A DNA stretch of 64,000 nt. Source: an uncultured Spirochaetota bacterium (GTDB lineage Bacteria; Spirochaetota; Spirochaetia; JAFGXN01). Location of the stretch: positions 17,160-81,159 of the forward strand of contig CALXKN010000008.1 in NCBI GenBank assembly GCA_944388995.1, read 5' to 3'. Positions 22,249 to 60,938 of this stretch are shown here, in pieces (position 1 is the stretch's first letter; every line of letters starts with the position of its first letter). The position numbers and the translations under genes are program-made. The notes below the pieces were generated by a model. It searched no databases. It was not told where the DNA came from and saw only the letters and a program-made list of their open reading frames with translations.

Positions 22249-23049
22249 TTACCGCCACAAATAAATTTTGTACAATTTCCTCGCATAAAAATAATAGACC
22301 GCAAAATACAGAACCGTCAGAACCGCCAGAACGGGAAGCCGGTTCAAGCTGTAAATCGCCAGAAACAGGAACGAAAAAACCAGCTCGGAAAACATCAGCA
22401 GCAAATTGTCTTTCAGAGTGTTGACCTTCCGATCCGCCAGATAAATAACAGCCGTCAGCAATTCCAAAAGAATAAAAAGCAGACAAATGTACAAAAGAAC
22501 ATAAGAACGGTAATAAAGTTCCTTTCCAACGGTTGCCGAATCAATCGGAATCAGAACGGAAAGAAACGCGAATCCGACAAGCAGAACGTAAAAAATGACA
22601 TCAAACCGGTTGTTTTCGCTTCCCAGAGAAAAAAACGCGCCGCAAAACGAGTAGAGCGGAACCAGCAAAATCACCGCATAAAAAATTTTCATCCCGTAAA
22701 CGAAGAAAAAATCAAGTCCGGTTAAAATCGGATAATTCAGAAAAAATGTCTTTAAGTGAATGAACAACAGAACAAAAAGGGACAGAATATGGAAAAAAAT
22801 CTCATTGGACATAATCGTGCGGAACCGGTAATAAGTCAGTCCGATAAAACCGTAAATGAGAATCGTCAGAACAAAGAGAAAAACATAAAACGCTGCTATC
22901 GAAAAAAAATCGGGAAAATCGGCAAAACGGTAATCGTAATGGCTGCGGTTCGTCAAAAAAAAGACAAAGTTGAAAACCGATAGCAGCGGCAAAAAAAGTC
23001 CCGCCGCAAAAACGATTTTCAGCAATCGGTTGCGCATTCGGAGTGTCAT
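22249..23049 (-). CDS. Polytopic membrane protein, unknown function
   Basis: 266 aa, hydrophobic. Confidence 0.5.
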   Translation of the reverse strand: MTLRMRNRLLKIVFAAGLFLPLLSVFNFVFFLTNRSHYDYRFADFPDFFSIAAFYVFLFVLTILIYGFIGLTYYRFRTIMSNEIFFHILSLFVLLFIHLKTFFLNYPILTGLDFFFVYGMKIFYAVILLVPLYSFCGAFFSLGSENNRFDVIFYVLLVGFAFLSVLIPIDSATVGKELYYRSYVLLYICLLFILLELLTAVIYLADRKVNTLKDNLLLMFSELVFSFLFLAIYSLNRLPVLAVLTVLYFAVYYFYARKLYKIYLWR

Positions 23050-23855: not shown

Positions 23856-23884
23856 TTGACAAAACGCCGTTCTCTCTTTATAAT
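23856..23884 (+). promoter_or_regulatory. Consensus sigma70 promoter (TTGACA-17-TATAAT) driving tRNA-Ser/SRP RNA/dnaX
   Basis: Exact -35 and -10 hexamers with a 17-bp spacer. Ends 9 nt before the tRNA 5' end. Confidence 0.6.
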
Positions 23885-23893
23885 AATTCCATT

Positions 23894-23980
23894 GGAGAGA
23901 TGTCCGAGTGGTTTAAGGTGCACGCTTGGAAAGCGTGTGTACGGTAACACGTACCGGGGGTTCGAATCCCCCTCTTTCCG
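23894..23980 (+). tRNA. tRNA-Ser (anticodon GGA)
   Basis: Cloverleaf with acceptor GGAGAGA/TCTTTCC, anticodon stem cacgc/gcgtg with loop ttGGAaa, long variable arm (gtacggtaacacgtac), and T-arm ggggGTTCGAATCcccc. Confidence 0.9.
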
Positions 23981-23983
23981 TTT

Positions 23984-24090
23984 CCCTTGGGTAAGACGGC
24001 AGACAAATCGGAGCGGCTCAACCCTGCCAGGTTCGGAAGAAAGCAACAGTCGGCTGTTTCCGGTTGTGCCTGTTTTGTTTTATTCAAGGG
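23984..24090 (+). ncRNA. ffs: Signal recognition particle RNA (small/4.5S-type)
   Basis: Domain-IV motif ccAGGuuCGGAAgaAAGCAaCag (GGAA tetraloop flanked by AGG and AAGCA). Terminal helix CCCTTG…CAAGGG. Position immediately 5' of dnaX, as in Bacillus. Confidence 0.6.
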
Positions 24091-24108
24091 TTTTCTTTGG
24101 GAAAAGCC

Positions 24109-25830
24109 ATGTCCTACGAAGTCACAGCCATCCGAAAGCGTCCCCATACCTTTGAATCCCTCGTCGGGCAGGAATTTGTTGTCTCTGCCTTAACGAATTC
24201 CATTGCCAACGGAAATTTTGCCCGCGCCTACCTTTTTTCCGGTCCCCACGGGGTCGGAAAAACATCCGTTGCGCGTATTTTGGCGGCCGCTTTAAACTGT
24301 GAACACGGTCCGACGCCCCATCCGTGCTGCCGGTGCGCTTCCTGCAAAGAAATCATTGCCGGCAATTCCCTTGACGTTACCGAAATTGACGGTGCTTCCA
24401 ACACATCAGTCAGCGATATCCGCGTGATAAAAGACGAAATTCTTTTTCCTCCGAATTCATCGCGTTTTAAAATCTATATTATTGACGAAGTTCATATGCT
24501 TTCCAACAGCGCGTTCAACGCTTTATTGAAAACCATTGAAGAGCCGCCTGAACACGTTGTTTTTATTTTCGCCACAACCGAAGTTCACAAAGTTTTGCCG
24601 ACCATCCGCAGCCGCTGCCAGCAGTTTCATTTCCGGTTAATCGATACCGACGTCGTTAAAAATCTGCTGAAGGACCGCTGTCTGGAAAGAACCATCCGTT
24701 TCGAAGACGACGCCCTGCTCTGGATTGCGAAGGAAGCGGCCGGTTCCGTGCGCGATGCCTATATGCTTTTCGATCAGATTTTAACCTTTTCTAATGGAGA
24801 AATAACGCTTCAAAAAATCCGGGAAAACATGGGCGTCATCGGGTTCGACCGTATCAACGATTTGGTCGTGCTGATGGCGGAGGGAAAGGAAAAAGAAGTC
24901 TTGGAAACCGCTTCCGCAATTCTTTCAGCCGGCGTTTCCATCGAACAATTAATCAACGATTTGGCCGAATATTTCCGCGGAATTCTGCTGATAAAAACCG
25001 GTATTGAAAAGGAATCTTTAATCGGAGTGCGGAAAGACCGTTATCATGCGGAAGCCGTCGGGGCATTCTCCGTTTCCGGAGTCGAAAACGCTTTATCCCT
25101 TCTGTTTTCTCTTTACAGGGATATCCGCTTTTCCGTCAACCCCCGATTTGAATTGGAATTGATTTTAAGCCGTTTATCCCGTCTAAAAGATTTTCTGACA
25201 AAAACGGAAATTTTGGAAGAACTCGGCATTCTGAAGCAACAGCTTTTAAAACAGATTTCCCTGCACGGCTCGTCCGTTTCTGTACCGGAAAAAGAGAGGG
25301 AAATTCCTGCTAAAACAACGGAGCGTCCTCCTGCCGAAGACTTGCTGTCGTCTCCGGCCGAAACGGTTTTCCGCCAACCGCCTGCCGGGTTCGCGCAACG
25401 GTCGGAGCAACCGCTGCCGGCGGCCGCGGAAACACACTCTGCCGGCGGAACGGCGGAACGGCCGCTGACCTCAAAAGAAATTCTGCCGCTTTTAATCCGG
25501 ATTGCGGTCGAAAACAAAAAACCTCTTTTGAAAACCGTCCTGTCGGAAATCAAAAAAGCGCACGCCGACGGAACGCGGCTGACGCTTTACTGTAAAAATG
25601 ATTACGGCCGGGATGCGGTTTGCCAATCGGCTCCGCTGCTTGAAAGAGAGGTTTTTGAGAAAACCGGTATCGCTTACAAAATCGACGCGGAAACCGCCCC
25701 CGATTTATCGGCCAACCTTCAGACGCCGTCGGAAGCGGCCGAACTCGAACTTTTCAGGCAGGTCTTCAACGCCGAACCGGTCGGGAAGAATCCTGTTCCT
25801 TCCGCAGAAAGCGGGGACTTGAATTTTTAA
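24109..25830 (+). CDS. dnaX: DNA polymerase III subunits gamma/tau
   Basis: Walker A GPHGVGKT, Zn module CxxC…CxxC, SRC motif, and clamp-loader boxes. Confidence 0.9.
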   Translation: MSYEVTAIRKRPHTFESLVGQEFVVSALTNSIANGNFARAYLFSGPHGVGKTSVARILAAALNCEHGPTPHPCCRCASCKEIIAGNSLDVTEIDGASNTSVSDIRVIKDEILFPPNSSRFKIYIIDEVHMLSNSAFNALLKTIEEPPEHVVFIFATTEVHKVLPTIRSRCQQFHFRLIDTDVVKNLLKDRCLERTIRFEDDALLWIAKEAAGSVRDAYMLFDQILTFSNGEITLQKIRENMGVIGFDRINDLVVLMAEGKEKEVLETASAILSAGVSIEQLINDLAEYFRGILLIKTGIEKESLIGVRKDRYHAEAVGAFSVSGVENALSLLFSLYRDIRFSVNPRFELELILSRLSRLKDFLTKTEILEELGILKQQLLKQISLHGSSVSVPEKEREIPAKTTERPPAEDLLSSPAETVFRQPPAGFAQRSEQPLPAAAETHSAGGTAERPLTSKEILPLLIRIAVENKKPLLKTVLSEIKKAHADGTRLTLYCKNDYGRDAVCQSAPLLEREVFEKTGIAYKIDAETAPDLSANLQTPSEAAELELFRQVFNAEPVGKNPVPSAESGDLNF

Positions 25831-25853
25831 CCGAAATTCTCTTTAATACCGGT

Positions 25854-26174
25854 ATGAATCCTTTTGAAGCCTTTAAAAATTTAGGAAAAATCCAGTCCCA
25901 AATGAAAGAAATTCAGGATAAACTTGACCGCCTGTCTGAAACGGGATGTTCATTGGGGGAAACCGTCCGTGTCACACTGAACGGAAAATTTGAAATGACC
26001 GACATTCAGATCGATCCCACGTCTCTGAAGCCGGAAGATTGGGATTTGCTTCCGCCGCTCATCAAAGCCGCCCACGCCGACGCCGTTGAAAAAATTCGCA
26101 GCGCCGTGCAACGAGAAACGGCCGCTTTAACCGGCAGTTTAAATATTCCCGGTTTTCCCGGATTCGGAATGTGA
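25854..26174 (+). CDS. ybaB: Nucleoid-associated protein YbaB/EbfC
   Basis: 106 aa. Conserved position between dnaX and recR. Confidence 0.85.
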   Translation: MNPFEAFKNLGKIQSQMKEIQDKLDRLSETGCSLGETVRVTLNGKFEMTDIQIDPTSLKPEDWDLLPPLIKAAHADAVEKIRSAVQRETAALTGSLNIPGFPGFGM

Positions 26175-26175
26175 A

Positions 26176-26760
26176 ATGGACGCGCTTGACGCTTTGGCAC
26201 TCAGTTTTTCCAAACTGCCGGGAATCGGCCGCAAAAGCGCCCGGCGGATTGCTTTCTCGCTTTTAAAAACCGATGACCGTTTCAACGCGCTTTTGGCTTC
26301 TCAAATCATTGAACTGAAAGAAAAAATCCGGGAGTGTTCGGTTTGCGGCGCTTACTGCGAAGGAGAAATTTGTCCGATTTGCGATAACCCGCAGCGGGAC
26401 AGAACTCAAATCTGCGTTGTGGAACAGTCATCCGATTCGGCTTCGATTGAAAGCACGGGAGAATTCCACGGTCTGTACCACGTTCTGCACGGAACCATTT
26501 CCCCGCTGGACGGCGTCGGCCCTCAGGATCTGACCATTGACAAGCTGCTCAGGCGGTGCGACGGAACCGTCAGAGAGGTGATCATTGCAACAAACGCAAC
26601 GGTTGAAGGCGACACGACAGCGCTTTACCTTGTTTCATTGTTAAAAGAAAAAAACGTCAAAGTTTCCCGATTGGCATCGGGGCTTCCTGTCGGAGGCGAT
26701 TTGGAATACATCGACAAAATCACGCTTTCCCGCTCGCTGCGGGGACGAATTGAATTTTAA
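26176..26760 (+). CDS. recR: Recombination protein RecR
   Basis: HhH (LPGIGRKSARRIAF), C4 zinc finger (CSVCGAYCEGEICPIC) and Toprim domain. Confidence 0.9.
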   Translation: MDALDALALSFSKLPGIGRKSARRIAFSLLKTDDRFNALLASQIIELKEKIRECSVCGAYCEGEICPICDNPQRDRTQICVVEQSSDSASIESTGEFHGLYHVLHGTISPLDGVGPQDLTIDKLLRRCDGTVREVIIATNATVEGDTTALYLVSLLKEKNVKVSRLASGLPVGGDLEYIDKITLSRSLRGRIEF

Positions 26761-31509: not shown

Positions 31510-32184
31510 TCAGGCGTTGAAATTCTTCTTGTAAATAACCCTTACTTTTTTGTAAAGCCCTTCGCCTTCGCTGATGGTTTCAATATCTTCCCATTCCGCC
31601 AACGTCAAATGAATAATTCTCCGTTCAAACGGATTCATCGGATCCAGTAAATGCGAAGTTTTCGTCCGCCGCACGTGTCTTGCCGTTTTTTCCGCCAAAT
31701 CCTGCAGCGAATGCTCGCGGCGGCCGCGGTAATTTTCGATGTCAACGACGATTTTCAAATCTTCTTTTTTCTTGGAAACAAAAACATTCGCCAATAATTG
31801 AAGCGCGTCCAATGTTGAACCTTTGCGGCCGATTAACAGGTTGGTTTTATCGCTTTCAATATTAATGTGAATTTTGTTTTCTTCCGTTTTGTTGATTTCC
31901 AAAGTCGCCGAAATACCCATTTTTTCAACGATATTTTTCAGAAAATCAACGGTTTCCAGTTCGATTTCCGTAATTTCATACGATTCGGCGGATGATTCCT
32001 CCTCCTCTTCTTCTTTTTCCTCAATCCCGTCGTCAATATAAACCTTGATTTTGACGGGGCCTTTTTTGAAAAAACCTTTTTTTTCTACGACTTCAACGTC
32101 AAAAGCGTCTCTTTCCAATCCGAGCTCGTTGACGGCATTCTGAACGGCTTCTTCTTCTGTTTTTCCTGTAAACTCATATGTCAT
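31510..32184 (-). CDS. jag: Jag/KhpB RNA-binding protein (KH + R3H)
   Basis: Position after yidC. Acidic linker and R3H motif in the C-terminus. Confidence 0.8.
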   Translation of the reverse strand: MTYEFTGKTEEEAVQNAVNELGLERDAFDVEVVEKKGFFKKGPVKIKVYIDDGIEEKEEEEEESSAESYEITEIELETVDFLKNIVEKMGISATLEINKTEENKIHINIESDKTNLLIGRKGSTLDALQLLANVFVSKKKEDLKIVVDIENYRGRREHSLQDLAEKTARHVRRTKTSHLLDPMNPFERRIIHLTLAEWEDIETISEGEGLYKKVRVIYKKNFNA

Positions 32185-32201
32185 ATTTTTCTCCTTAAAA
32201 A

Positions 32202-33974
32202 TTATTTTGCAAACGCTTTTTTCTTTCCGGCAATTTTCTTTCCGCCGGAAGAAGAATTTTTATTCCGGGCATTTTTCTTTACCGCGTTGTAAATCAACTG
32301 CTGAATGACCGACAGAATATTCATGACAATCCAGTAAACAAACAGACCGGACGGCATATTGTAAAGCGTAAAAAAGAAAATAACCGGCAGCAGATACATC
32401 ATGATTTTCATCTGTTTATTGGCCGCCTGTTCCGTTCCGATTTGCATGATTTTCATCGACAAAAGCTGAGTGACAATGAACAAAATCGGCAGAATCCGGA
32501 TACTGTTTTGCGAAAACGCGGTAATTAACGGAATATTCTTTTCCCAAGTATAAACCGAATCGGGCGATGAAAGGTCGGTAATCCACCAAATAAACGGTTC
32601 CTGAAAAAGATCATAATCGGAACGCAGTAAATTGAACAGCGGAATTAAAATCAGCATCTGCAAAATCATCGGCAGACAGCCTTTCATCGGATTGATTTTA
32701 TTATCGCGGTAAAAATTAGCCATTTCGGCCTGCATTTTCTGCGGATTGTTTTTGTATTTATCCTGAATTTCTTTGATTTTCGGTTGGAGTTTCTGCATCG
32801 CCGCCGAAGATTTCATTTGTGACATGGAAAAAGGAACCAAAATCAACTTGATAAAAATCGTCAGAAGAACGATGACCCAACCCCAGTTATGAATGTGAAG
32901 AATATTGTGAAAGAAATTCATCACTCCTTTCAGAGCAACCGAAATGATGCCGCGGCCGGCGCCGGCTTTATCCAGCGACATTCCGCTGTAACCGAATGCG
33001 TTGTCATTGCTGTTGTTGTAAACGGCCAAAAAATGTTTGACGCGCGGACCGATGTAAAACCGGTACGTATCCGTAATTTCGATTTCGTTAAAAGGCTTCC
33101 GTTCAAAGAAAATTTCGCTGAAGACATAACCGTTATCGGAATATTTATCCATAACGATTCTGTGAGTTGTCAGTTTCGGTTCGACGCCGATAGCGGCAAA
33201 ATAACGGCTTTCGATTCCGACCCAATCAACCCGCGTCGTAATCAGAACCCGTTCATAGTCGGAATATTTTCTCAGTTTTTCATCTTTATAGATGATAAAA
33301 TCCCTGTAATTGGCCGAACCGGATTTGTTTTTTTTGGAGGTTTCGACAAACGCCGGACCGATTTGCGGTAAAAATTCCAATGTGTAGGAAGGCTGTTCGT
33401 TGGACAAAAACGGAATTTTCGTTTCCTGACTGAGAATTTCAACGGTCAGTTCAATCATGAACTCACCGTTAAAAATCCTGTATTTCTTGTTCAAAGTGAA
33501 AGGAACGCTGTTTTTATCCGTAAAATCTCGGGTAAAAACAACCGATGTTTCATTTTCCTTCTGTTCAACCGTGTAATCAAAAACGGAATCAATGTCGTTG
33601 CCGCGGTAATTCCCGAATCTCAAATCGAAAGCCTTTTCCGTTCCGTTACCGTGAACCAAATCAATCACTTCCTGAGATTTTTCATTCGGTCTGACAAAAA
33701 TATGGGAAACGGTTCCGCCGACAGGGGAAAACACAATATCGTAGACATCGGTTTTAACCGAAAACTCTTCCTTATCTGCCGCATCCTCTCCGATCGGCAG
33801 AACGGGAACGTTGTTAAATTCAGCGTTTTCCGGCCGCGTATCGGCAACAGCGGATCGGTTTTCGCCGACAGTATTGTTCCGGTTTTCGAACGAACGGTTA
33901 AACCAGAAAATAATCAAAAACGAAACGGTTCCCAAAAAAAGGAAGAACATAAAATTCTTTATAAAATTAACCAC
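32202..33974 (-). CDS. yidC: Membrane protein insertase YidC
   Basis: Periplasmic domain plus conserved C-terminal 5-TM core, and a basic C-tail. Confidence 0.9.
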   Translation of the reverse strand: MVNFIKNFMFFLFLGTVSFLIIFWFNRSFENRNNTVGENRSAVADTRPENAEFNNVPVLPIGEDAADKEEFSVKTDVYDIVFSPVGGTVSHIFVRPNEKSQEVIDLVHGNGTEKAFDLRFGNYRGNDIDSVFDYTVEQKENETSVVFTRDFTDKNSVPFTLNKKYRIFNGEFMIELTVEILSQETKIPFLSNEQPSYTLEFLPQIGPAFVETSKKNKSGSANYRDFIIYKDEKLRKYSDYERVLITTRVDWVGIESRYFAAIGVEPKLTTHRIVMDKYSDNGYVFSEIFFERKPFNEIEITDTYRFYIGPRVKHFLAVYNNSNDNAFGYSGMSLDKAGAGRGIISVALKGVMNFFHNILHIHNWGWVIVLLTIFIKLILVPFSMSQMKSSAAMQKLQPKIKEIQDKYKNNPQKMQAEMANFYRDNKINPMKGCLPMILQMLILIPLFNLLRSDYDLFQEPFIWWITDLSSPDSVYTWEKNIPLITAFSQNSIRILPILFIVTQLLSMKIMQIGTEQAANKQMKIMMYLLPVIFFFTLYNMPSGLFVYWIVMNILSVIQQLIYNAVKKNARNKNSSSGGKKIAGKKKAFAK

Positions 33975-33990
33975 AACATCTCCTTATATC

Positions 33991-34311
33991 TCATTTTAAA
34001 GGATCGTAACCGCCCGGATGAAAAGGGTGACACTTTAAAATTCTTTTGACAGTCAGAAACAAACCTTTAACCGGTCCGTATTTTTTCAGCGCCTGAACCG
34101 CATAAGCGGAACAGGTCGGATAAAACCGGCAGGTCGGCGGAAAAAGAGGAGAGATGCAAATCTGATAGAAACGAATCGGTAAAATCAAAAGAGCCGAAAA
34201 AAACGAACCGGCTTTAACACACAAAAAATTTATTTTTGAGAATTTTATTAAATTGTTTTTCCCGTTCTTCGTATTCATACAGACCCGGATAAACGATAAA
34301 AACAAAATCAA
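33991..34311 (-). CDS. yidD: Membrane protein insertion efficiency factor YidD
   Basis: Motif FYQxxISPxxPxxCRFxPTCSxYA. The true start is probably downstream of the ORF-track start, which overlaps rnpA. Confidence 0.75.
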
Positions 34312-34555
34312 ATCCCGTTTTGATTTTTTTCTTGTTTTTTCTGAAAATTTCTTTTAACTGTCTTCTGATTTTGTTTCTTTTGACGGAACACCCGAATTTT
34401 CTGACAGGACAAATTAAAACACGGCTGTAGTTTAAACCGTTTTTCCGATAGCGTAAACTCATCCCTTCCGCAGAAATTTTTTCCGCCTCCGCAAAGAGCG
34501 TTTTTATGTCTTTACGGAGGCGGATAATTTCTTTCTTAGTAAGGCTTTCTCTCAT
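34214..34555 (-). CDS. rnpA: Ribonuclease P protein component
   Basis: 113 aa, basic, RNR-motif region ([11 protein letters not shown]). Confidence 0.85.
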
Positions 34556-34691
34556 CGGAAACGGTTAAATTCTTTCTGCCTTTTTTTCTTCTTCTGGCCA
34601 AAACCAAACGGCCGCCTTTGGTTGCCATTCTCGCTCTGAAACCGAATTTTCTGTTTCTTTTAACCCGACTGGGCTGATAAGTCATTTTCAT
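34536..34691 (-). CDS. rpmH: 50S ribosomal protein L34
   Basis: Not in the ORF track (under 60 aa). Translation is [44 protein letters not shown]…. The 3' end overlaps the rnpA start. Confidence 0.85.
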
Positions 34692-34759
34692 CTTCTTTTC
34701 TCCAATTCAGCAATTTATCTTTATATTAAATTAAGACGATTCAGATTGATTGTCCTGTC

Positions 34760-34788
34760 AGTATAAATTTTACATCCAAGATTGTCAA
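34760..34788 (-). promoter_or_regulatory. rpmH operon promoter (TTGACA-17-TATACT)
   Basis: Minus-strand -35 at 34783-34788 and -10 at 34760-34765, about 70 nt upstream of the rpmH ATG. Confidence 0.55.
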
Positions 34789-34793
34789 GGGCT

Positions 34794-35228
34794 TCAATTT
34801 TCCGATATTATTTTTTTGATTTCTTTTATAACGGAATTTAGTTTTTTCTGTTCTTCTTTACTTTTCGGAATCAAGTCGGAGCAGTAGCGGTCTTTAAATA
34901 AATCGGGACGGGAAACATAAAAAATTTCTTTGAGATTTTCACATCCTTTGTTTTTTCTCAAACCGTCAATGATTTTTCCCTCTATGAATTTCATCGTAAT
35001 TTGGAACGATGAATGGGAAACGGCTGCAATCAGTCTGGTTCCGTTTTTATCAAAATATAAAGGATAACTGTTTTCAGCCAAACCGGCGCCAACAATTTCC
35101 TTCCAGTTATGAAAAGGCGATTTTTTTACAATTTTTGATTCTTCCAGTAAAGAAGCGAGTGAAACCGTTTTTATAACTTTTCCGTATTCTTTTAATTTCA
35201 ATTCTTCAAAAAACGGACGACCGTTCAC
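34794..35228 (-). CDS. DUF721-family protein (recF-linked)
   Basis: 144 aa. Conserved position immediately downstream of recF. Confidence 0.6.
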   Translation of the reverse strand: MNGRPFFEELKLKEYGKVIKTVSLASLLEESKIVKKSPFHNWKEIVGAGLAENSYPLYFDKNGTRLIAAVSHSSFQITMKFIEGKIIDGLRKNKGCENLKEIFYVSRPDLFKDRYCSDLIPKSKEEQKKLNSVIKEIKKIISEN

Positions 35229-36291
35229 TGATTTCTCCTCCTTCGACGAATAAAACCGTTGTCTCTTTCTTCATATAATCGCTGTAATTTTCTTCCGGTA
35301 AAAAAGTAAAAAAAATTTGGTCGTAAAAATTCAGTCGTTTTAAAAATCTTTTTCTTTTTTCGCCGTCCACTTCGAGAATTACGTCGTCAAGAAGCAGAAT
35401 CGGTCTGATTCCGGCTTCTTTTAAAAATTCGGTCTGAATCAGCTTCAAAATAAGCGACAGAATGCGTTTTTGTCCTGTCGAAGCGGTTTTTGAAAAGTCT
35501 TTTTTTTCCGAAACAAAAACAAAGTTGTCGCGGTGAGGCCCTTTTGAAGTTGTTAAAAACCGGATATCGTCGTTTCTGGCCCCGCGGATTTCTTTCAGCT
35601 GTTCTTCTTCCGTTTTTCCTTTTAACGAAGAACGGTAAACCAGCTCAATATCTTTTCTTTGGCCTGTGATGTCTTTATAAATTTCCGAAAACATTCCGTT
35701 GATTTTTTTTACCTGTTCTTCCCTGAAACGGAAAACGGAGAATGCCGTTTGAGACAACTGACGGTCGTAAATATCAAGAAGATGGTAGTTTTTTTCTTTC
35801 AGTAAAGTATTCCTTTGGTTTAAAATCAGTTTGTATCTGCGTTTCAAATCGATATATTCGCAGTGATAAAAACAGATAATCTGATCAATGTATTTCCGTC
35901 TCAAATCCGGTTCTCCGGTAATAATGTGAAAATCCTCATGAGAAAACAAGACAACGGGATTAAGACGAATCATCTCCTTTCTGTCTTTTAAAGGATTTCC
36001 GTTCAGTAAAATCTGACGGTTTTTTTCTTCTTTGAAGCGGATTTCGTTGTCTTCGTCTTCTTCAATATTGAATTTTCCGGTTAAAGAACAGCTGTTGGTT
36101 CCGTATTTTTTGAAAATTTGTTCGCTTTTCCGTTTAAAAGAGGAACCGTAAGAGAGAATATACAATGATTCGAGAATGTTTGTTTTTCCCTGTCCGTTAT
36201 TCCCGACAAGAAAAATTTCTCTGGACGGAAAGCGGACGGTTCCGTTCCGGATGTTGCGGAAATTATAAAATGTAACCGATCGGAAACTCAT
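35206..36291 (-). CDS. recF: DNA replication and repair protein RecF
   Basis: Walker A GNNGQGKTN and an ABC-type signature in the C-terminus. Confidence 0.9.
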   Translation of the reverse strand: MSFRSVTFYNFRNIRNGTVRFPSREIFLVGNNGQGKTNILESLYILSYGSSFKRKSEQIFKKYGTNSCSLTGKFNIEEDEDNEIRFKEEKNRQILLNGNPLKDRKEMIRLNPVVLFSHEDFHIITGEPDLRRKYIDQIICFYHCEYIDLKRRYKLILNQRNTLLKEKNYHLLDIYDRQLSQTAFSVFRFREEQVKKINGMFSEIYKDITGQRKDIELVYRSSLKGKTEEEQLKEIRGARNDDIRFLTTSKGPHRDNFVFVSEKKDFSKTASTGQKRILSLILKLIQTEFLKEAGIRPILLLDDVILEVDGEKRKRFLKRLNFYDQIFFTFLPEENYSDYMKKETTVLFVEGGEISERSSVF

Positions 36292-37400
36292 TGAGATGCT
36301 GTCATCGGCATAACGATGTGCAGAAATTTCTCCTGAGGCACGCTGTAAACCGTCACGGCTTTTTCCGGATGAGAAAAACGGATTTCGATGTTTTCGGAAT
36401 CAATGATTTTTAAAGGATCAAGAAGAAACATATAATTCAGTGAAATCGTAACGTTACCGCCGCCGGTATAAACGCACGGAATTTTTCCGAACGCCTTTCC
36501 GAACGTGTTTTCTTTATCGGTTTCGACCGACATTTCATTGTCCGTAATCCGCAAGTTGATTCTGTTGGTCTTATTCTCAATCATAACGGAAATTCTGTTG
36601 ATAACGCTGATCAGCTCGTTTTTATTCACAACGATTGATTTGTCGTCGTCTTTGGGAATGATTCTTTCGTAGTCGGGATAGGAATTATTGATGATAAACG
36701 AATACAGATAAGTGCTGCCGAATTTAAAGACGATTTTTTTATCGCCGATCATAATTTCAAAATCACCATCGTTGCCGGTCAGTCTTTTGAAAAGGGTCAG
36801 CGCTTTTTTCGGAATGATGATGTCTTTAAAGTCGGGAACTTCCGTTTCGGAAGAATCAATAATCGACATCTGTTTCATATCGGTGGAAACCATTCTCAGC
36901 GAAGAGTTTTTTTTGCAGAAGAGAACGCCGGTCAGATAAATTCTGTTTTCGTCGTTGGAAACGGAAAACAGAGTGTGATTAATCATTTTCAGAAATTCTT
37001 TTTGTGAAAATGAAAAAGAAACGACATTCTCATCCATACCGATTTCGGGAAAGGTATCGGAAACAGTCATTTTCAGAGTATAAAAAAGACTGTCGTTGTT
37101 TTTTAAAGATACATTGAAATCCGTATGAACCGATTCAAAAAGAAGTTCTTCATCGGGACAGCTTCTCAGCACTGTTAAAAACTTATCGCAGTAAACGACG
37201 GCCGATCCTTCTTCCAGAACATCGACCTTCAGCGAAGTTTCATAACTGAAATTGGAGTCGGTTGCTTTGATAATCAGTATATTGTCGGCAGCCTGAAGAT
37301 AAACGCTCGACATGAAAGAGGCAAAATTCCTCGAAGAAGCAATTTCGTAAGCGATACCGATTTCTTTTAAAAGAGCTTCTTTTTGACAGGTGAATTTCAT
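36288..37400 (-). CDS. dnaN: DNA polymerase III beta sliding clamp
   Basis: 370 aa. Position between dnaA and recF. Confidence 0.9.
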   Translation of the reverse strand: MKFTCQKEALLKEIGIAYEIASSRNFASFMSSVYLQAADNILIIKATDSNFSYETSLKVDVLEEGSAVVYCDKFLTVLRSCPDEELLFESVHTDFNVSLKNNDSLFYTLKMTVSDTFPEIGMDENVVSFSFSQKEFLKMINHTLFSVSNDENRIYLTGVLFCKKNSSLRMVSTDMKQMSIIDSSETEVPDFKDIIIPKKALTLFKRLTGNDGDFEIMIGDKKIVFKFGSTYLYSFIINNSYPDYERIIPKDDDKSIVVNKNELISVINRISVMIENKTNRINLRITDNEMSVETDKENTFGKAFGKIPCVYTGGGNVTISLNYMFLLDPLKIIDSENIEIRFSHPEKAVTVYSVPQEKFLHIVMPMTASQ

Positions 37401-37646
37401 AAAATTTCTCCTTATAAACAGATAACGATTAATATATTAATATATATTAATTCATTATCTTTATTACACTGTTGATTTGTTGATAATCCTTTTAAATCCT
37501 TTTAACATATAAAATAAGCTGTATAACAGTCTGTCAGTTAAAAGTGTTTTCATGTATGTAAATTGTCAGTTTCTCCTTTTTCTTTTAAAAAGCATATTCA
37601 TATCATATCAAAAAAAACAGAGTTTGCACAGTTTTTATATAAGTTA
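37401..37646. other. Candidate oriC: AT-rich dnaA-dnaN intergenic region with degenerate DnaA boxes
   Basis: 246 bp at about 25% GC in a ~50% GC genome. DnaA-box-like TGTTGATAA (37478-37486) and TTATCAACA (37645-37653). The dnaA-gyrB gap is only 94 bp. Confidence 0.45.
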
Positions 37647-39029
37647 TCAACAGTTTTTCAGACTGTTTTGAATTTCATTGATGTCGGATTTTAAAATGGA
37701 GTCAAACTGAATGCGGTTCGAAATTTTATTTTTTGAATTAATGACTGTTGAGTGATCCTGTCCGAAATACTCTCCGATTTCGGTTGTGGTCAGTTCCGTC
37801 ATTTGAGTTGCGATGTAAACGGCGGCTTGTCTGTGTATGATAATATTTTTTTTTCTGCTTTTTGATTTTATATCGGCGGTCGGAATATTGTAAAAGTCGG
37901 CAACTTTTTTGACAATCAAATCCATGGAAATTTTTGTATTGTTCTGAACTTTGGACATATTTTTATTCTCTTTGATATACTCTTTTGCATCTTCCAAAGT
38001 TCCCGTATCCGAATTAAAATCGATAAAGAAGAGAAAGGATTTTAAAATTCCTTCCAAATCACGGACGTTTCCGAAAATATTTTCCGAAAGATAAAAGTAG
38101 ACCTCCTCTTCCAGTTTTAAATTTTTATGATTGAAGATATTCTCTTTTTTCAGCTGTTCGGTTTTCTGCTTTAAAATTTTGAATTTAACGTCTGCCGTCG
38201 GTTCGGAAATATCAACCGTAATTCCGCTTTTAATCCGCGAAGCCAGTCTGTCGGTAAAATTCGGAAGTTCCGAAATCGGTCTGTCGCAGGTAAAACAAAT
38301 CTGTTTTCCGTTATCTTTCAGTTTATTGAAAAGAATAAAAAGTTCATGCTGAAGACCGTCTTTGCCTTTAAAAAGATGAATGTCGTCAATTAAAAAAGCG
38401 TCGGCATTTTCGAATAAAGAAAAACTTGTGTTGTTTTTTTTATCCATTTTGGATTTTACATTGTCGTAAAGGGCGTCAATTAAATCCTGGGAACTGATAC
38501 AGATGACATTCATTTCCGGATTTTCTTTGAGAATACGGTGGGCAATGGCCTGCATTAAATGGGTTTTTCCCATTCCGACCTGACCTAAAATCAAAAGCGG
38601 GTTACAGGCTTCCGATCCGATGTGTGACGCTGCCAGCAAAGCGATTTTTTTTGCGTGGCTGTTGTTCTGTCCTTCGATAAAAGTTTCGAATGTGTACAGC
38701 GGATTCAATTTACAGAATCTGTTTTCCTTGTTTTGTTTTTCCGGTGTTTCCGACGGGGATTCTTTTTTTGACGGATTCGCTACCGCAACCGGTTCTTCGC
38801 TGATGACGTAGTTTAAGGAAATTTCGTCGTCAAAACTGATGTTCAGATAGTTTTCGATATCGGACTGATAATTTTTTTTGATTTTTGATTCGATGAAAGA
38901 AGGACAGGTGATTGTCAGTGTTTTTCCGTTCAGAGAAAACGAAACATAGTCGAAAAAAGGAGTAAAATTTTTCTTTTTAATCTTTTTCAGATAATCAACC
39001 AAGTCTTCTTTCAACTCATCGTTATTCAT
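37647..39029 (-). CDS. dnaA: Chromosomal replication initiator DnaA
   Basis: AAA+ Walker A GQVGMGKTHL and a C-terminal DnaA-box-binding HTH. Confidence 0.95.
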   Translation of the reverse strand: MNNDELKEDLVDYLKKIKKKNFTPFFDYVSFSLNGKTLTITCPSFIESKIKKNYQSDIENYLNISFDDEISLNYVISEEPVAVANPSKKESPSETPEKQNKENRFCKLNPLYTFETFIEGQNNSHAKKIALLAASHIGSEACNPLLILGQVGMGKTHLMQAIAHRILKENPEMNVICISSQDLIDALYDNVKSKMDKKNNTSFSLFENADAFLIDDIHLFKGKDGLQHELFILFNKLKDNGKQICFTCDRPISELPNFTDRLASRIKSGITVDISEPTADVKFKILKQKTEQLKKENIFNHKNLKLEEEVYFYLSENIFGNVRDLEGILKSFLFFIDFNSDTGTLEDAKEYIKENKNMSKVQNNTKISMDLIVKKVADFYNIPTADIKSKSRKKNIIIHRQAAVYIATQMTELTTTEIGEYFGQDHSTVINSKNKISNRIQFDSILKSDINEIQNSLKNC

Positions 39030-39123
39030 AAATATCCCCTCACCATCATAACACAGGATTTGAAAAAGTCCAAGGAAAAAAAGCGAATGTTTACTTTTTA
39101 TCGGAAAAAATGTATAATGACCT

Positions 39124-41058
39124 ATGCAGAAAGATTATTCGGCAAGTAATATTCAGATTTTAAAAGGTTTGGAAGCGGTCAGAAAAAGGCCTGGTATGTA
39201 CATCGGTACGACAGGCGAAGAGGGGCTTCATCATCTTGTTTATGAGATTGTCGATAACAGTATTGACGAGGCTTTAGCCGGTTACTGCGATCAAGTTGAT
39301 GTTTTCATCGAACAAGGAAATATTATAAGAGTTGAAGATAACGGACGCGGAATTCCGACAGATATTCATCCCGAAGAGGGAGTTAGCGCTCTGGAGGTGG
39401 TTTTAACTAAACTTCATGCCGGAGGAAAATTTGATAAGAATTCGTATAAAGTTTCCGGAGGTTTGCACGGCGTCGGTGTTTCTGTTGTCAACGCTCTTTC
39501 GGAATGGCTGGAAGTAACCGTTTACAGAAACGGAAAGATTTTTTATCAGCGTTATAAAAGAGGAATTCCGGAAAAGGCGGTTGCCGTCCTGGGAGAAACG
39601 GAAAGAACGGGAACGGTTGTCAGATTCAAACCGGACGGGGAAATTTTTAAGGATACGCAGATTTTCAAATTCGACATTCTTTCATCGCGTCTGCGTGAAC
39701 TTTCGTTTTTGAATAAAGGAATCAAAATCAACATTACCGATTTCAGAACTCCCGTTCCGAAAGAAAACAAATTTCTGTTTGAAGGCGGGGTAAAATCGTT
39801 TGTGTCGTTTTTAAACGAGAACAAAAAACCGCTTCAGTCGGAACCGATTTATTTTGAATCCGAAAAAGAGACCGAAAAAGGCGTTGTAAAAATTGAAGTG
39901 GCGATGGAGTACAGCGAGAGCTACAACGAGCTGATTTTGTCTTTTGTCAACAATATCAATACGCGCGAAGGCGGAACCCATCTCAGCGGGTTTAAAACGG
40001 CTTTGACAAGAGTTTTTAACGAAAAGTTAAAAACATCCAAAGTCGGTAAGCGTTCGAAGCTGACCGAACCTTTGAGCGGTGAAGATACCCGCTTCGGTTT
40101 GACGGCCGTCGTCTCGGCAAAAGTTCCCGACCCTCAGTTTGAAGGGCAGACAAAAGCCAAACTGGGAAATACCGAAATCAGAAAAATTACGGAAACAATC
40201 GTTTACGATAATCTGCTGCTGTATTTTGAGCAGAATCCCGATACGGTCGAAGTGATACTTTCAAAAGCGGTGGAATCTTCCATGGCGCGGATGGCCGCTC
40301 AGCGCGCGCGCGCGAATGTGCTTCGGAAAAACAGTCTGGAAAGCGGATCCCTTCCCGGAAAATTGGCCGACTGTTCGGAAAAAGATCCGTCGCTTTGTGA
40401 GATTTACATCGTTGAGGGAGATTCAGCAGGAGGAAGCGCCAAAGGAGGGCGTGATAGCAAACATCAGGCCATTCTTCCTCTTTGGGGAAAAATGCTGAAT
40501 GTCGAAAAAGCCAGAATCGAGCAGGTGGTAGACAACGATAAACTGAAGCCGGTGATTCAGGCTTTGGGAACAAACGTCGGAAAGCACTTTAATTTGGAAA
40601 AGTTACGGTATGACAAAGTCATCATTATGGCCGATGCCGACGTTGACGGTTCCCATATCCGTACACTGCTGCTGGCGTTTTTTTTCCGCTATATGACGCA
40701 GTTAATCGAGACCGGGCATGTTTATCTGGCAATGCCGCCGCTTTATAAAATCGAATATAAAAAAAAGCACCATTACGCATACGACGATAATGAAAAAGAC
40801 CGGATTCTGAACGAGATCGGCGTTTCGGAAGAAGAGAATTCTGTAAAAATTCAACGGTACAAAGGTCTCGGAGAGATGAATCCGGAACAACTTTGGGATA
40901 CAACGATGAATCCGGAAACAAGGCAAATGATGAAAGTGACAATGGAAGATGCCGTTGAAGCCGACAGAATTTTTACCGTTTTAATGGGAAGCGAAGTCGA
41001 GCCCAGGAAAAAATTCATTGAAGAAAACGCGTTGTCGGTCACTAATCTGGATATTTAG
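39124..41058 (+). CDS. gyrB: DNA gyrase subunit B
   Basis: GHKL ATPase motifs, Toprim EGDSAGG, and C-terminal signature. Extended -10 TGTATAAT at 39107-39114. Confidence 0.95.
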   Translation: MQKDYSASNIQILKGLEAVRKRPGMYIGTTGEEGLHHLVYEIVDNSIDEALAGYCDQVDVFIEQGNIIRVEDNGRGIPTDIHPEEGVSALEVVLTKLHAGGKFDKNSYKVSGGLHGVGVSVVNALSEWLEVTVYRNGKIFYQRYKRGIPEKAVAVLGETERTGTVVRFKPDGEIFKDTQIFKFDILSSRLRELSFLNKGIKINITDFRTPVPKENKFLFEGGVKSFVSFLNENKKPLQSEPIYFESEKETEKGVVKIEVAMEYSESYNELILSFVNNINTREGGTHLSGFKTALTRVFNEKLKTSKVGKRSKLTEPLSGEDTRFGLTAVVSAKVPDPQFEGQTKAKLGNTEIRKITETIVYDNLLLYFEQNPDTVEVILSKAVESSMARMAAQRARANVLRKNSLESGSLPGKLADCSEKDPSLCEIYIVEGDSAGGSAKGGRDSKHQAILPLWGKMLNVEKARIEQVVDNDKLKPVIQALGTNVGKHFNLEKLRYDKVIIMADADVDGSHIRTLLLAFFFRYMTQLIETGHVYLAMPPLYKIEYKKKHHYAYDDNEKDRILNEIGVSEEENSVKIQRYKGLGEMNPEQLWDTTMNPETRQMMKVTMEDAVEADRIFTVLMGSEVEPRKKFIEENALSVTNLDI

Positions 41059-41067
41059 GAGTCGGCC

Positions 41068-43518
41068 ATGGAAGAAACGCAGCCGGGAAATATCATTCCC
41101 GTATCCATAGAAGATGAAGTCAAACAGTCTTATCTGAATTATGCCATGTCGGTTATCGTCAGCCGCGCGTTGCCGGACGTCCGCGACGGACTGAAACCGG
41201 TTCACCGCAGAATCTTATACGCGATGAATGAACTGGGACTGGCGTCAAATAAAGAAACCAAAAAATGCGCCCGCATTGTCGGTGAAGTTTTGGGTAAGTA
41301 CCATCCGCACGGCGATCAGTCGGTTTACGACGCGTTGGTCCGTATGGCGCAATGGTTTTCGCTGAAGTATCCTCTGATTTACGGCCAGGGCAATTTCGGA
41401 AACTTGGACGGCGATTCGGCCGCCGCCATGCGGTATACCGAAGCCAAAATGGAAAAGTACGCTGAATTGATGATGACAGACATCAATAAAGATACGGTTG
41501 ACTGGATGCCGAATTATGATGAATCGACGCAGGAACCGACCGTTCTTCCTTCAGCTTTTCCGAATTTGCTTGTCAACGGATCAAACGGAATTGCTGTCGG
41601 TATGGCGACGAATATGGCTCCGCATAATATCAACGAAGTCTGCGCTGCTGTTTCCGCCTATATCCGGAATCCCGATATTACCGTTGAAGAATTGATGCAG
41701 TATATAAAAGGCCCCGATTTTCCGACCGGCGGTCTTATTTACGGTACAGAAGGAATTAAAAAAGCGTACAGAACGGGTCGCGGAAAAGTTTTGATTCGGT
41801 CAAAGTGTTCGATTGAGACAATGAAATCCGGAAGGATGTGCATTGTTGTTACCGAAATTCCTTACATGGTCAACAAAAAGTCGTTGCTGGAACGGATTGC
41901 CGATTTGGTGAAAGACAAAAAAATCGAAGATATTTCCGCTCTGCGCGATGAATCTTCCGACAGGGTTGGCGTCCGGATCGTTATTGAGTTGAAAAAAGAC
42001 GCCAATGTCAAATTGGCGCTCAATAAACTTTATCTGCTTTCCGATCTCCAGAAAAGTTTCAGTATTATCAATTTGGCTTTGGTGAAAGGCCGTCCGGAAA
42101 CATTAAATTTAAAACAGCTGATTTTTCATTATGTTGAACACCGGAAAGAAGTGGTTACCCGCAGAACGGTTTTCGATTTGAATAAAGCCAAAGCCCGCTG
42201 TCATATTCTGGAAGGGTTAAAAATTGCGCTTGCCAATATCGATGAAATCATCGCCCTTATTAAAGCGTCAAAAACGGTTGATGAGGCAAGAAAGCGCTTG
42301 ATTGAACGTTTTGCCTTTTCCGAAATTCAAGCCAACGCCATCCTCGAAATGAGACTTCAGAAACTGACCAACCTGGAAACGGAAAAAATCCTGAACGAGT
42401 TGGCGGAAATCCTGAAAATGATTGCGTATTACGAAGACTTGCTGACACATGAAGATAAACTGATGGGGGTTGTACGGTCGGAAATCGAGCAAGTTTCCGA
42501 AGCAAATCAGTCAGACCGGCAAACCGAAATTCTGCTGCAGGAAGCGGAAGAAATCGACGCCGAAGACATGATTGCCGAAGAAAACGTGGTTGTTCTGATT
42601 TCAAACAAAGGTTTTATCAAACGGCAGCCCGTTTCATCATACCGGATTCAAAACCGCGGCGGCGCCGGTTCTTCTTCGACAAAATTTCATGTTGACGATT
42701 TTCTTGAACATCTTTTTATTGCCTCAACTCATGAGTACATCGTCTTTCTGACAAACGAAGGACGGGCTTATTATCTGAAAGTTCACGAAATTCCCGAAAG
42801 CAGCAAAGCGGCTAAAGGAACGCATATCAAACAGCTGCTTTCCATTACCGCAAACGAAGAGATTTCCGCTGTAGTAGCTTTAAAGGAATTTAATGAAACT
42901 TCGTTTTTATTTATGGCAACCGGATGCGGAAATGTTAAGCGTCTGGCTACATCAGAGCTGGAAAACGCCAAAACGCGCGGAAAAATCGTAATCCGTCTGC
43001 AGCAGGGCGACCGCCTTGTCAGCGTTATTCCGACAGACGGAAAACGGGAAATGTTTCTCGTTACAAGAAGGGGGCTTGCCCTCCATTTTAAAGAGGAAGA
43101 CGTCCGCGTTATGGGAAGAACCGCCTCCGGCGTGCGCGGAATCAGATTAACCAAAGGTGATGAAGTCGTTGCCGTTCTGTCTTTTAAGGAAAACGAACAG
43201 CTTTTTCTGATTTCCGAATTTGGATTTGCAAAGAGAACTAATCTTGAAAACAGCACTTCGCACTCGCGCGGATCGAAGGGAATCATTTACTATAAAGCCG
43301 GAGAAAAGACAGGCGAACTGGTCGGCGCTCTATGCGTTTCAGAAAAAGACGAATTGGTCTGCATTACCTCTCAAGGAATGACATTAAAATTGAAAGTTGA
43401 TCAAATCCCCGTATTGGGAAGATCTGCTTCAGGCGTGCGTGCGGTTCGCGTAAAAGAACCTGATTGTCTCGTCGGAGTGGCGCGCGTTGTTAACGAAGAT
43501 GCTCCGGATGAAAAATAA
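41068..43518 (+). CDS. gyrA: DNA gyrase subunit A
   Basis: Active-site Tyr region (AAMRYTEA) and C-terminal beta-pinwheel repeats. Confidence 0.95.
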
Positions 43519-43542
43519 TCCGCAGAACGACATCAGCACCCC

Positions 43543-43582
43543 GAAGCCGAATGGCTTCGGGGTGCTTGTTTTATTATAAAGA
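43543..43582 (+). terminator. Rho-independent terminator after gyrA
   Basis: Hairpin gcaccccgaagcc-gaat-ggcttcggggtgc followed by ttgtttt. Confidence 0.8.
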
Positions 43583-43590
43583 CAGTACCG

Positions 43591-43614
43591 TCAATGTTCC
43601 ACGTGGAACATTGA
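43591..43614. promoter_or_regulatory. parS-like centromere site 1 (perfect 24-bp palindrome)
   Basis: tcaaTGTTCCACGTGGAACAttga. The core TGTTCCACGTGGAACA differs from consensus parS TGTTTCACGTGAAACA at one symmetric position. Confidence 0.6.
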
Positions 43615-43641
43615 GAGCTTCTTCACGGCTTTATCGATTTT

Positions 43642-43665
43642 TGAATGTTCCACGTGGAACATTGA
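43642..43665. promoter_or_regulatory. parS-like centromere site 2
   Basis: Second copy of aaTGTTCCACGTGGAACAtt, 51 bp from site 1, about 1.7 kb upstream of parAB. Confidence 0.6.
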
Positions 43666-43696
43666 CATGGATTTTTATCCGTGTTAATTATACGGT

Positions 43697-44992
43697 ATGA
43701 AACGGTGTGTTTTTCTATTTTTAACGGTTTTTACGGCGTTCGGTTCGTTTGCTGAACAAAATGGAATTCGGATTGAAATTGACGGATCCGGGGAAAAGAC
43801 CGTTGCTGTTAAAGAATCTGAAGTTGCGGGAACCTCTGCTTTTGTTTTTTCTTTTAAAAAACAAGTCGGGTTATTTGCCGATAAAGTTACCGTTGAAGAT
43901 GCAGTGAAGGGGTTTAAATTTTATTCCGAGATTCGGGAAAAGGCAAATTTATACCGCAAAGAAGAAGAAAAAATTCGCAGCGATATTCTTGAAAAAGAAA
44001 AACATTTCAAAAAGGAAGCTGATCGCTTATATGATATTTACAACAGAAAACTCGAACCTCTTGTCCGAGCATTGACCGTTTTAGAAAAAAGCCGCTCTTC
44101 CGGCGGAGAAGTCGATGTAAATTCGGTTAAACAAAAGATTATTGAGCTGGAAACGGCACGCGATGAGGAAATTGCCGGCGAGAGAAAAAAATATTTTCCC
44201 GACGGATTGCAAACGAATATTGAAGTGACGATTGAAGAAACGGTTGAGGAAAAAATTATCGAAGAGTTCCGGCTGAACCGTTCTTCGTTTTCGGGGACAC
44301 AGATGTCACTTTCCGATGTAAAGAATTCCGTTTCTCTTCAAAATGCTGTACTTTCTTTTGTTCCGGTGAAAAATCTTAAATTGATTTATGAAGACGAAAA
44401 GACGGAAACATCATCAACAGTTTTAAAAAACGCAGCGCCGGACTTTCAAGCCGTAGGATTGCGTTTAAATTTTCCGAATACAGAAAAAACGTTTCGTTTT
44501 GACTGTGAAGAATTTCTTCGTTTGCTTTCGTCTTTTTTTGATTCACAAAACACGGCGCCGGTCGAAGTTCCGAAAACGGCGGCGGCTCAACAGGTCGGTT
44601 ATGTACTGAAAGCAAGGCGCTGCCTTCCCGAGGAATTTGGTTTAAGAAAAACACGACGCATCAGCAAAGAGTTGTTTGTTCCTGTTTCATTTGAAACCAA
44701 AACAGCGAACATTTCCGTTTCAGCGGCTGAGGTCGGCGGAAAGCGTTTTGTGTTTGTTCTTCCCGAAAAACAGGAAGGGAGTTTGGCTGAACATGTTTGC
44801 CTGATTTTTGAAGAAGCCGAAGTTGTCCGTTTGATACGGCTGATTGAAGAAAAACAAAAGTCTGTCGGTACGGTTTCCGTTGATTGGGATTTTCTTTCGT
44901 TCGATTCTGATTTGAAGACGGAAGTCGAAATAACGGATAACGGAGCGATTTTTCCCGAAGAAAAAATGAAGCAGCTGTTTCGGATAAAGTAA
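43697..44992 (+). CDS. Secreted hypothetical protein (431 aa), charged and coiled-coil rich
   Basis: Signal peptide MKRCVFLFLTVFTAFGSFA. No enzymatic motif. Confidence 0.5.
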   Translation: MKRCVFLFLTVFTAFGSFAEQNGIRIEIDGSGEKTVAVKESEVAGTSAFVFSFKKQVGLFADKVTVEDAVKGFKFYSEIREKANLYRKEEEKIRSDILEKEKHFKKEADRLYDIYNRKLEPLVRALTVLEKSRSSGGEVDVNSVKQKIIELETARDEEIAGERKKYFPDGLQTNIEVTIEETVEEKIIEEFRLNRSSFSGTQMSLSDVKNSVSLQNAVLSFVPVKNLKLIYEDEKTETSSTVLKNAAPDFQAVGLRLNFPNTEKTFRFDCEEFLRLLSSFFDSQNTAPVEVPKTAAAQQVGYVLKARRCLPEEFGLRKTRRISKELFVPVSFETKTANISVSAAEVGGKRFVFVLPEKQEGSLAEHVCLIFEEAEVVRLIRLIEEKQKSVGTVSVDWDFLSFDSDLKTEVEITDNGAIFPEEKMKQLFRIK

Positions 44993-45038
44993 ATTTACAA
45001 AAAAAGCGGGCCTTCGCCCGCCTGTCGTTAAATCCGAA

Positions 45039-45257
45039 TTAAACCGATTCGACGCCTTCCAGTTCAGGAATATTGTCTTTTAAGTATTTTTCGATACCGT
45101 TTTTCAGAGTCATTTGAGCCATCGGACAGCCGTGACAGCTGCCTTTCAGTTTTACATAAGCGATGTTTCCTTCCATTTTAACAAATTCTACATCGCCGCC
45201 GTCGGCTTGAAGGGAAGGGCGGACATGCTCGATATATTGTTTGACTTGTTCTTCCAT
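45039..45257 (-). CDS. NifU-like (Nfu) Fe-S cluster scaffold domain protein
   Basis: 72 aa with the CxxC motif GSCHGCP. Confidence 0.75.
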   Translation of the reverse strand: MEEQVKQYIEHVRPSLQADGGDVEFVKMEGNIAYVKLKGSCHGCPMAQMTLKNGIEKYLKDNIPELEGVESV

Positions 45258-45369
45258 AAAAATCTCCTTATTTGCAGTTTAACACTTTTTTTGTGCGGAG
45301 ACAAGAAATTTCGATTTTTTTTTGTTTTTATTGAAGAAAAAATCCTTTTTGACTATTATTATTTATAGT

Positions 45370-60401: not shown

Positions 60402-60643
60402 ATTTACTCATCCGTTCAGCAAGATCAGACGCATCCTTATTATATCTTTCCCTAAAATATTCTTCTGTTTTTATGGTGTCTCTCATCTGTTATTCCTTGT
60501 GTATTTTGTAAATTTTTGGTTTATTCTCGTTATACATAACATTGCCATTTTCATCAAGTTGGTAATATGTTACTTTTCCTCCCTTCGGAACGCCTGCGGC
60601 GTGGCTACAATCCTTTGTGCGAGAAGATTTTTATCAATGGTGT

Positions 60644-60700
60644 CCGTACACACCCATTGATGTTGTCAAAGAACTCCTTCTGTACGGAGATAGGGGGAGG
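60644..60700. repeat. 57-bp exact repeat with 7-bp inverted repeat (CCGTACA…TGTACGG), copy 1
   Basis: Identical to 63943-64000. Starts 2 nt after the stop of the 75-aa gene. Confidence 0.9.
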
Positions 60701-60701
60701 G

Positions 60702-60929: not shown

Positions 60930-60938
60930 ATATTAATC

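Follow-up and report, generated by a model that had tools for sequence, protein, structure and literature searches.

An ordinary housekeeping unit, consisting of a strong predicted promoter, a tRNA-Ser gene, a gene for the small signal recognition particle (SRP) RNA, ffs, and dnaX, is found in the window, the 64,000-nt stretch of DNA from an uncultured Spirochaetota bacterium that was analysed here. The tRNA, ffs and dnaX–ybaB follow one another on the plus strand (as called with ARAGORN, Rfam and Pfam over the 64 kb), with gaps of 9 nt between promoter and tRNA, 3 nt between tRNA and SRP RNA, and 18 nt between SRP RNA and dnaX (Table 1). Because the latter two gaps are so short and no internal −10-like hexamer is found, the sequence almost forces the conclusion that a polycistronic RNA runs from the tRNA to dnaX. 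The reading preferred here, to which a probability of about three in four is given, is that a single transcript would be processed by RNase P and RNase Z, that the SRP hairpin would act as a leaky terminator, and that dnaX would be expressed by read-through. The gene order itself is conserved in many phyla and is already known in kind, and none of the elements is of a new type. A preliminary description of this DNA had named the promoter, tRNA-Ser(GGA), SRP RNA and dnaX; the Rfam covariance models and Pfam concur with these identities, and the Rfam scan that it had put forward as a check matched both RF00005 and RF00169 at the locus.

Table 1. Features of the tRNA–ffs–dnaX unit and of the chromosomal origin region, in window positions
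Feature	Position	Strand	Basis or remark
Sigma-70-type promoter (predicted)	23856–23884	+	−35 TTGACA 23856–61, 17-nt spacer, −10 TATAAT 23879–84
AATTCCATT, leader between −10 hexamer and tRNA +1	23885–23893	+	9 nt; read from sequence
tRNA-Ser, anticodon GGA	23894–23980	+	Rfam RF00005, 52.2 bits, E 2.5e-8; ARAGORN
UUU spacer, tRNA discriminator to SRP hairpin	23981–23983	+	Inferred RNase Z trailer/cleavage region; read from sequence
ffs, small 4.5S-type SRP RNA gene	23984–24090	+	Rfam RF00169, MFE fold, covariation
T-run TTTTCTTT	24091–24098	+	Directly after hairpin base; read from sequence
GGGAAAAGCC, short dnaX leader with weak purine-rich ribosome-binding region	24099–24108	+	Sequence only
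dnaX, DNA polymerase III gamma/tau, 573 aa	24109–25830	+	Pfam DNA_pol3_delta2 7e-47, DNA_pol3_gamma3 3e-13, DNAX_ATPase_lid
ybaB/ebfC, nucleoid-associated protein	25854–26174	+	Pfam YbaB_DNA_bd 3.5e-21
recR	26176–26760	+	Pfam RecR_HhH, RecR_ZnF, Toprim_4, RecR_C
jag–yidC–yidD–rnpA–rpmH	31510–34691	−	
DciA-like ORF	34794–35228	−	
recF–dnaN–dnaA	35206–39029	−	Divergent from gyrB–gyrA
gyrB–gyrA	39124–43518	+	
parA/parB	45370–47029	+	

The predicted promoter has −35 and −10 elements within the 16–18-nt spacing of sigma-70 promoters and is placed to drive the gene downstream of it. It scores 12/12 and is the sole exact TTGACA-17-TATAAT on either strand of the 64 kb, where 0.01 are expected from shuffled sequences; the exact match that had been described 9 nt before tRNA-Ser(GGA) agrees with these results in both coordinates and score. 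Since the usual distance from the −10 element to the start of transcription is ~7 nt, transcription would begin near A23891, giving a 5′ leader of ~3 nt. Three relatives likewise carry a promoter directly before the tRNA, at a distance of 12–17 nt: these are L045 (TTGACA-18-TAAACT), L117 (TTGAAG-17-TATATT) and L039 (TTGACA-18-TTAAAT).

Upstream of the promoter, plus-strand genes for GDPD, YhhN and DUF2259 proteins stop at 23804, and neither reading of the sequence nor the terminator scan revealed a convincing terminator between 23805 and 23855. As these genes end without an obvious terminator, some transcription from them may enter the unit. The same arrangement of same-strand genes could be taken to mean that the RNAs are made mainly by this upstream read-through, the −35/−10 match being coincidental or of minor importance. 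Such an explanation is very unlikely, given that a 12/12 match expected 0.01 times per window is suitably spaced from the tRNA, and that good promoters precede the single tRNA in the three relatives named above.

The tRNA gene encodes an ordinary class II tRNA-Ser of 87 nt, with a cloverleaf, a serine anticodon and a long variable arm that contains an insertion. ARAGORN reads the same anticodon (gga) and places the gene at 23893–23981. The Rfam bounds are preferred, because the acceptor stem GGAGAGA/TCTTTCC, which includes one G·U pair, and the discriminator G23980 fit them. The gene has no encoded CCA; TTT comes next.

The RNA encoded downstream of the tRNA is an ordinary RF00169 (Bacteria_small_SRP) RNA. 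The match covers 23990–24087 and the full length of the model (1–97 of 97) at 61.5 bits (E 4.1e-11), where the gathering score is 40 bits, and it is the only RF00169 match in the 64-kb window; any Rfam-based pipeline would call this gene. In the minimum free energy (MFE) fold the SRP RNA is a single hairpin of 107 nt with 14 contiguous base pairs at its base, where CCCTTG (23984–89) pairs with CAAGGG (24085–90). The domain IV motif, AGGUUCGGAAGAAAGCA, lies at 24029–24045 and has a GGAA tetraloop of the GNRA type, and a UGUGCC stretch is found at 24064–69. The preliminary description had proposed an element of ~107 nt, beginning 3 nt past the tRNA, with a domain IV motif and a closing CCCTTG/CAAGGG helix, all of which is borne out by the coordinates and the family match. 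Within the predicted 208-nt primary transcript, the tRNA, its acceptor stem closed, and the SRP hairpin form two separate domains (z = −3.9).

Conservation of this RNA was followed by aligning 18 spirochaete SRP RNAs, 17 from relatives and one from the window. The A, G and C residues of the domain IV motif are invariant across the 18 sequences, and compensatory (double-sided) changes occur in 26 of the 32 consensus pairs. The window's own deviations are compensatory as well, with UUC/GAA in place of ACC/GGU in the apical stem and U–A in place of C–G in the next helix. The basal helix varies in length and was left unaligned by MAFFT, and covariation there was inspected sequence by sequence, without pair counts; its sequence differs between genomes with the pairing always present, as in CCCCTTCAG/CTGAAGGGG, GGAGACAG/TTGTCTCC and CCTAGGAC/GTCTTAGG. 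Closer to the window, six metagenome contigs of the same species are 99.0–100% identical to it, and their ffs is either 100% identical or carries one pairing-preserving change. Strains L003 and L006 (99.0–99.5% identity) have only two substitutions in the 304-nt intergenic region. These are C23948T, in the variable arm of the tRNA, and G23990A, which converts a G·U pair of the SRP basal helix to A–U.

It might be supposed that the hairpin at 23984–24090 is only a terminator for the tRNA, or a decaying duplicate, and that a functional ffs lies elsewhere: the DNA visible here is 64 kb of the genome, and 61.5 bits falls at the low end of the 49–74 bits found in 18 spirochaete relatives. This supposition is extremely improbable. 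The match is full-length and well over the gathering score, every invariant residue of domain IV is present, and the differences from relatives preserve pairing, as does the variation among the six contigs of the same species. Moreover, in each of the 18 spirochaete loci that were run against Rfam, RF00169 is matched above threshold directly after a tRNA, and ffs there has the same syntenic place as the hairpin in the window.

The 3′ boundary of ffs has a further property. The outermost three pairs of the basal helix are G–C, and UUUUCUUU follows directly, so that helix and U-run together resemble an intrinsic terminator, presumably a leaky one. At 107 nt the hairpin is far above canonical terminator length, and the terminator scan, which accepts loops of 3–8 nt only, gave no call for it. 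A comparison by a structure-free criterion (at least 6 T in 8 nt), made alongside control segments, found a T-run after the SRP RNA in 27 of 30 spirochaete loci as opposed to 3 of 28 control segments, among the matches listed. The boundaries of MFE hairpins over the 120 listed loci were noisy in some GC-rich genomes, where the fold over-extends, and were used for spirochaetes only. In Borreliella, the T-run stays at the SRP hairpin even though dnaX is more than 230 nt away. Since the run adjoins the hairpin also where dnaX is distant, it belongs to the SRP gene rather than to the ribosome-binding site of dnaX.

dnaX begins at the ATG at 24109, 18 nt past the SRP RNA as had been described, and its identity is supported by the Pfam domain DNA_pol3_delta2; the N-terminus of the protein aligns with that of its relatives from residue 1. 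The exact DnaX protein was found on metagenome contigs only, and among named genomes the best tblastn identities were to Spirochaetia and Spirochaetaceae MAGs. The start of the next gene, ybaB, differs with the gene caller, giving a product of 106 aa or 90 aa on contigs of the same species.

The question of how dnaX is transcribed turns on the DNA between the main promoter and its start codon. A −10-like hexamer was required to have A in second and T in sixth place and at least 4 of 6 matches; a hexamer scan found neither such a hexamer nor an extended −10 in 23885–24108, and the best internal candidate, TTTATT at 24079–84, is without the key A at position 2. As dnaX has no recognised promoter of its own in this interval, it would need some read-through from the tRNA promoter.

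The comparison with Borrelia burgdorferi, a member of the same phylum, bears on this point. Fig. 1A of Krusenstjerna et al. 2022 (PMC9879097) draws two tRNAs, srp and dnaX–ebfC, the same order of tRNA, SRP RNA, dnaX and ybaB/ebfC as in the window. In B. burgdorferi, dnaX has a 179-nt 5′ UTR, and mapping placed its promoter within the 3′ end of srp (PMC9879097). Borrelia thus has two tRNAs, a 179-nt UTR and a promoter in srp, whereas the window has one tRNA with its promoter, a gap of 18 nt and no recognisable internal promoter. The Borreliella loci L013, L035 and L104 resemble the window in having tRNA-Ser(GGA), a 3-nt spacer, the SRP hairpin and a T-rich run. Four relatives (L125, L120, L016 and L117), with gaps of 50–67 nt between SRP RNA and dnaX, carry extended −10-like motifs just past the U-run (TGTATAAT, TGTATACT, TGTATGAT and TGGTATAAT). 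These motifs suggest a separate dnaX promoter that has no counterpart in the window. Taken with the mapping in Borrelia, they indicate that a separate promoter for dnaX does occur in the clade, and the window is the compact extreme of a variable theme, seeing that the relatives with longer gaps carry the −10-like motifs and that the Borrelia promoter lies inside srp.

On this evidence it could be proposed that dnaX in the window is also transcribed from a promoter of its own, weak or non-canonical, within the 3′ part of ffs; the U-run would then end essentially all tRNA–SRP transcripts, and the locus would be made up of two overlapping, independent units. The position of the B. burgdorferi dnaX–ebfC promoter, just inside the end of srp in the mapping reported (PMC9879097), and the TGnTATAAT-like motifs after the U-run in the four relatives speak for this proposal. 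It is nonetheless unlikely for the window, where no TAnnnT hexamer in 23885–24108 reaches 4 of 6 matches and where dnaX follows the SRP RNA after 18 nt, compared with the 179-nt 5′ UTR given for Borrelia.

Under the preferred reading of a single transcript, RNA polymerase would start ~3 nt 5′ of the tRNA, and the ~3-nt leader would be trimmed by RNase P. The preliminary description had suggested RNase P-dependent processing of a polycistronic RNA; a role for the enzyme limited to the trimming of this leader is plausible, since rnpA is present in the same window (34214–34555, minus strand; Pfam Ribonuclease_P, 6e-19), which points to an ordinary ribonucleoprotein RNase P. The cut between tRNA and SRP RNA is more probably made by RNase Z than by RNase P, because the tRNA has no encoded CCA and UUU comes next; in CCA-less tRNAs, RNase Z cleaves immediately after the discriminator (PMC8549757). 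RNase Z would cut right after G23980 and free the tRNA for CCA addition. The same cut would define where the SRP RNA starts, apart from up to three extra U residues that may be trimmed afterwards. RNase P may remove these leftover U residues as well, since the precursor of E. coli 4.5S RNA is one of the classical substrates of this enzyme (PMC12439589). The 64-kb window contains no gene for RNase Z, the CCA-adding enzyme or Ffh.

At the other end of the SRP RNA, the majority of transcripts would stop at the U-run past the basal helix, the SRP hairpin doubling as an intrinsic terminator. A minority would read through and provide the dnaX–ybaB–recR mRNA. In this way one strong promoter would yield abundant stable RNAs together with scarce clamp-loader mRNA.

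Several known systems share parts of this arrangement. E. coli ffs is, on established knowledge, monocistronic, has a leader of ~22 nt and adjoins neither a tRNA gene nor dnaX. Like that in the window, the RNA belongs to RF00169 and forms one hairpin in which domain IV carries a GGAA tetraloop, and its 5′ end is matured from a precursor. In the window, by contrast, the SRP RNA would probably owe its 5′ end to 3′ processing of the tRNA and its 3′ end to the U-run at the hairpin. In the E. coli thrU–tyrU–glyT–thrT–tufB operon, tRNAs and an mRNA share a promoter, and the parts are separated by tRNA-processing enzymes; the genes are different from those discussed here, and no SRP RNA is among them. 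In Bacillus subtilis, scr, the gene for SRP RNA, lies directly upstream of dnaX–yaaK(ybaB)–recR, and the ffs–dnaX linkage that had been noted for Bacillus is indeed established knowledge. The order in the window, with the SRP RNA gene directly 5′ of dnaX–ybaB–recR, is the same save for the adjacent tRNA. B. subtilis SRP RNA differs in being of the large Alu-domain type, in being cut by RNase III and other enzymes, and in having no tRNA immediately adjacent. The B. subtilis scRNA is excised from a precursor, with 354 nt reduced to 271 nt (PMC1935012).

The spread of the arrangement was assessed with a pattern scan over one genome per species, 185,579 species in all. The pattern, GGTTCRAWTCC-N45-75-AGGNNNGGAAGNNAGCA, combines a generic tRNA T-loop with the SRP domain IV motif 45–75 nt later and leaves the type of tRNA open. 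At least 120 loci across many phyla were found. ARAGORN called tRNA-Ser(GGA) in 110 of the 120 matches listed; the others are one Ser(CGA), two Ala(CGC) and seven uncalled, mostly with the tRNA cut by the end of the locus. The Ala(CGC) loci (L058 and L062) are from Calditrichaceae/Caldithrix MAGs and still have dnaX on the 3′ side. Hosts among the matches listed include Spirochaetota (Borreliella, Brachyspira and Treponemataceae), Myxococcota, Gamma- and Betaproteobacteria, Nitrospirota, Aquificota, Desulfobacterota, Acidobacteriota, Synergistota, Binatia and others. One short contig of 1403 nt assigned to a Methanococcoides sp. MAG (L040, MPPA01000048.1) shows a bacterial-type tRNA-Ser(GGA) with the domain IV pattern of SRP RNA and a T-run after it, and is probably bacterial DNA placed in the wrong bin.

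Of the 104 listed matches that extend for at least 600 nt downstream, 73 have the start of dnaX no more than 400 nt away (22 of 26 in spirochaetes and 51 of 78 in others). An encoded CCA is present in 0 of 30 spirochaete loci as against 58 of 91 other loci, again among the matches listed. The spacer between tRNA and SRP RNA is mostly 2–9 nt in the spirochaete relatives and often U-rich. Most of these relatives have two to six tandem tRNA genes before the SRP RNA (L016, L019, L028, L052, L114, L120, L125 and others), with ffs as the last gene of the tRNA cluster, whereas in the window only one tRNA is present, preceded by a consensus promoter of its own. For tRNA-Ser–ffs–dnaX synteny, a search of the literature collection used here turned up only a Borrelia figure legend (PMC9879097), and no paper that takes as its subject either the pan-bacterial linkage or SRP RNA as a dnaX attenuator.

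The presence of tRNA-Ser(GGA) before ffs in many phyla, together with the spirochaete U-run, suggests a scheme in which one promoter would provide abundant stable RNAs and a trickle of replication mRNA. A wider version of this scheme is offered tentatively, as possible but doubtful: tRNA-Ser(GGA)–ffs–dnaX may be an ancient order kept for its function, in which ffs has neither a promoter nor a 5′-end signal of its own and relies on the promoter and the 3′ processing of the tRNA, and in which the spirochaete basal helix and U-run form a leaky terminator that meters dnaX–ybaB–recR. If this were true, clamp-loader synthesis would be tied to the activity of a stable-RNA (growth-rate) promoter. Of mild comparative interest are how widely tRNA-Ser(GGA) is kept in front of ffs and the probable use of the SRP hairpin as a leaky terminator; both extend known principles. 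For annotation, the analysis allows confident labels for ffs, the tRNA and the promoter that they share, and it fixes the start of dnaX at 24109.

The chromosomal origin region also lies within the window, at 31510–47029 (Table 1). The cumulative GC skew has its minimum at ~36 kb, and a stretch of low G+C (0.36) extends over ~34–38 kb. DnaA boxes (TTATCCACA, with at most one mismatch) number 18 against 10.8 expected, which is no clear enrichment. The tRNA–ffs–dnaX–ybaB–recR unit (23856–26760, plus strand) lies left of the inferred origin (~39.1 kb), at a distance of ~15 kb. Being on the plus strand and to the left of the origin, it would be read towards the origin and so meet the replication fork head-on, an unusual orientation for stable-RNA genes with high expression. 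The tRNA–ffs–dnaX unit of Borreliella americana (L013) is found in 480001–488000 of the 904.7-kb chromosome. Two ORFs in the window are without a Pfam match, one at 22249–23049 on the minus strand (266 aa) and one at 43697–44992 on the plus strand (431 aa). Towards the right end of the window (60001–64000), G+C is 0.33–0.34, compared with ~0.45–0.50 in most of the rest, and the GC skew is negative again past ~54 kb.
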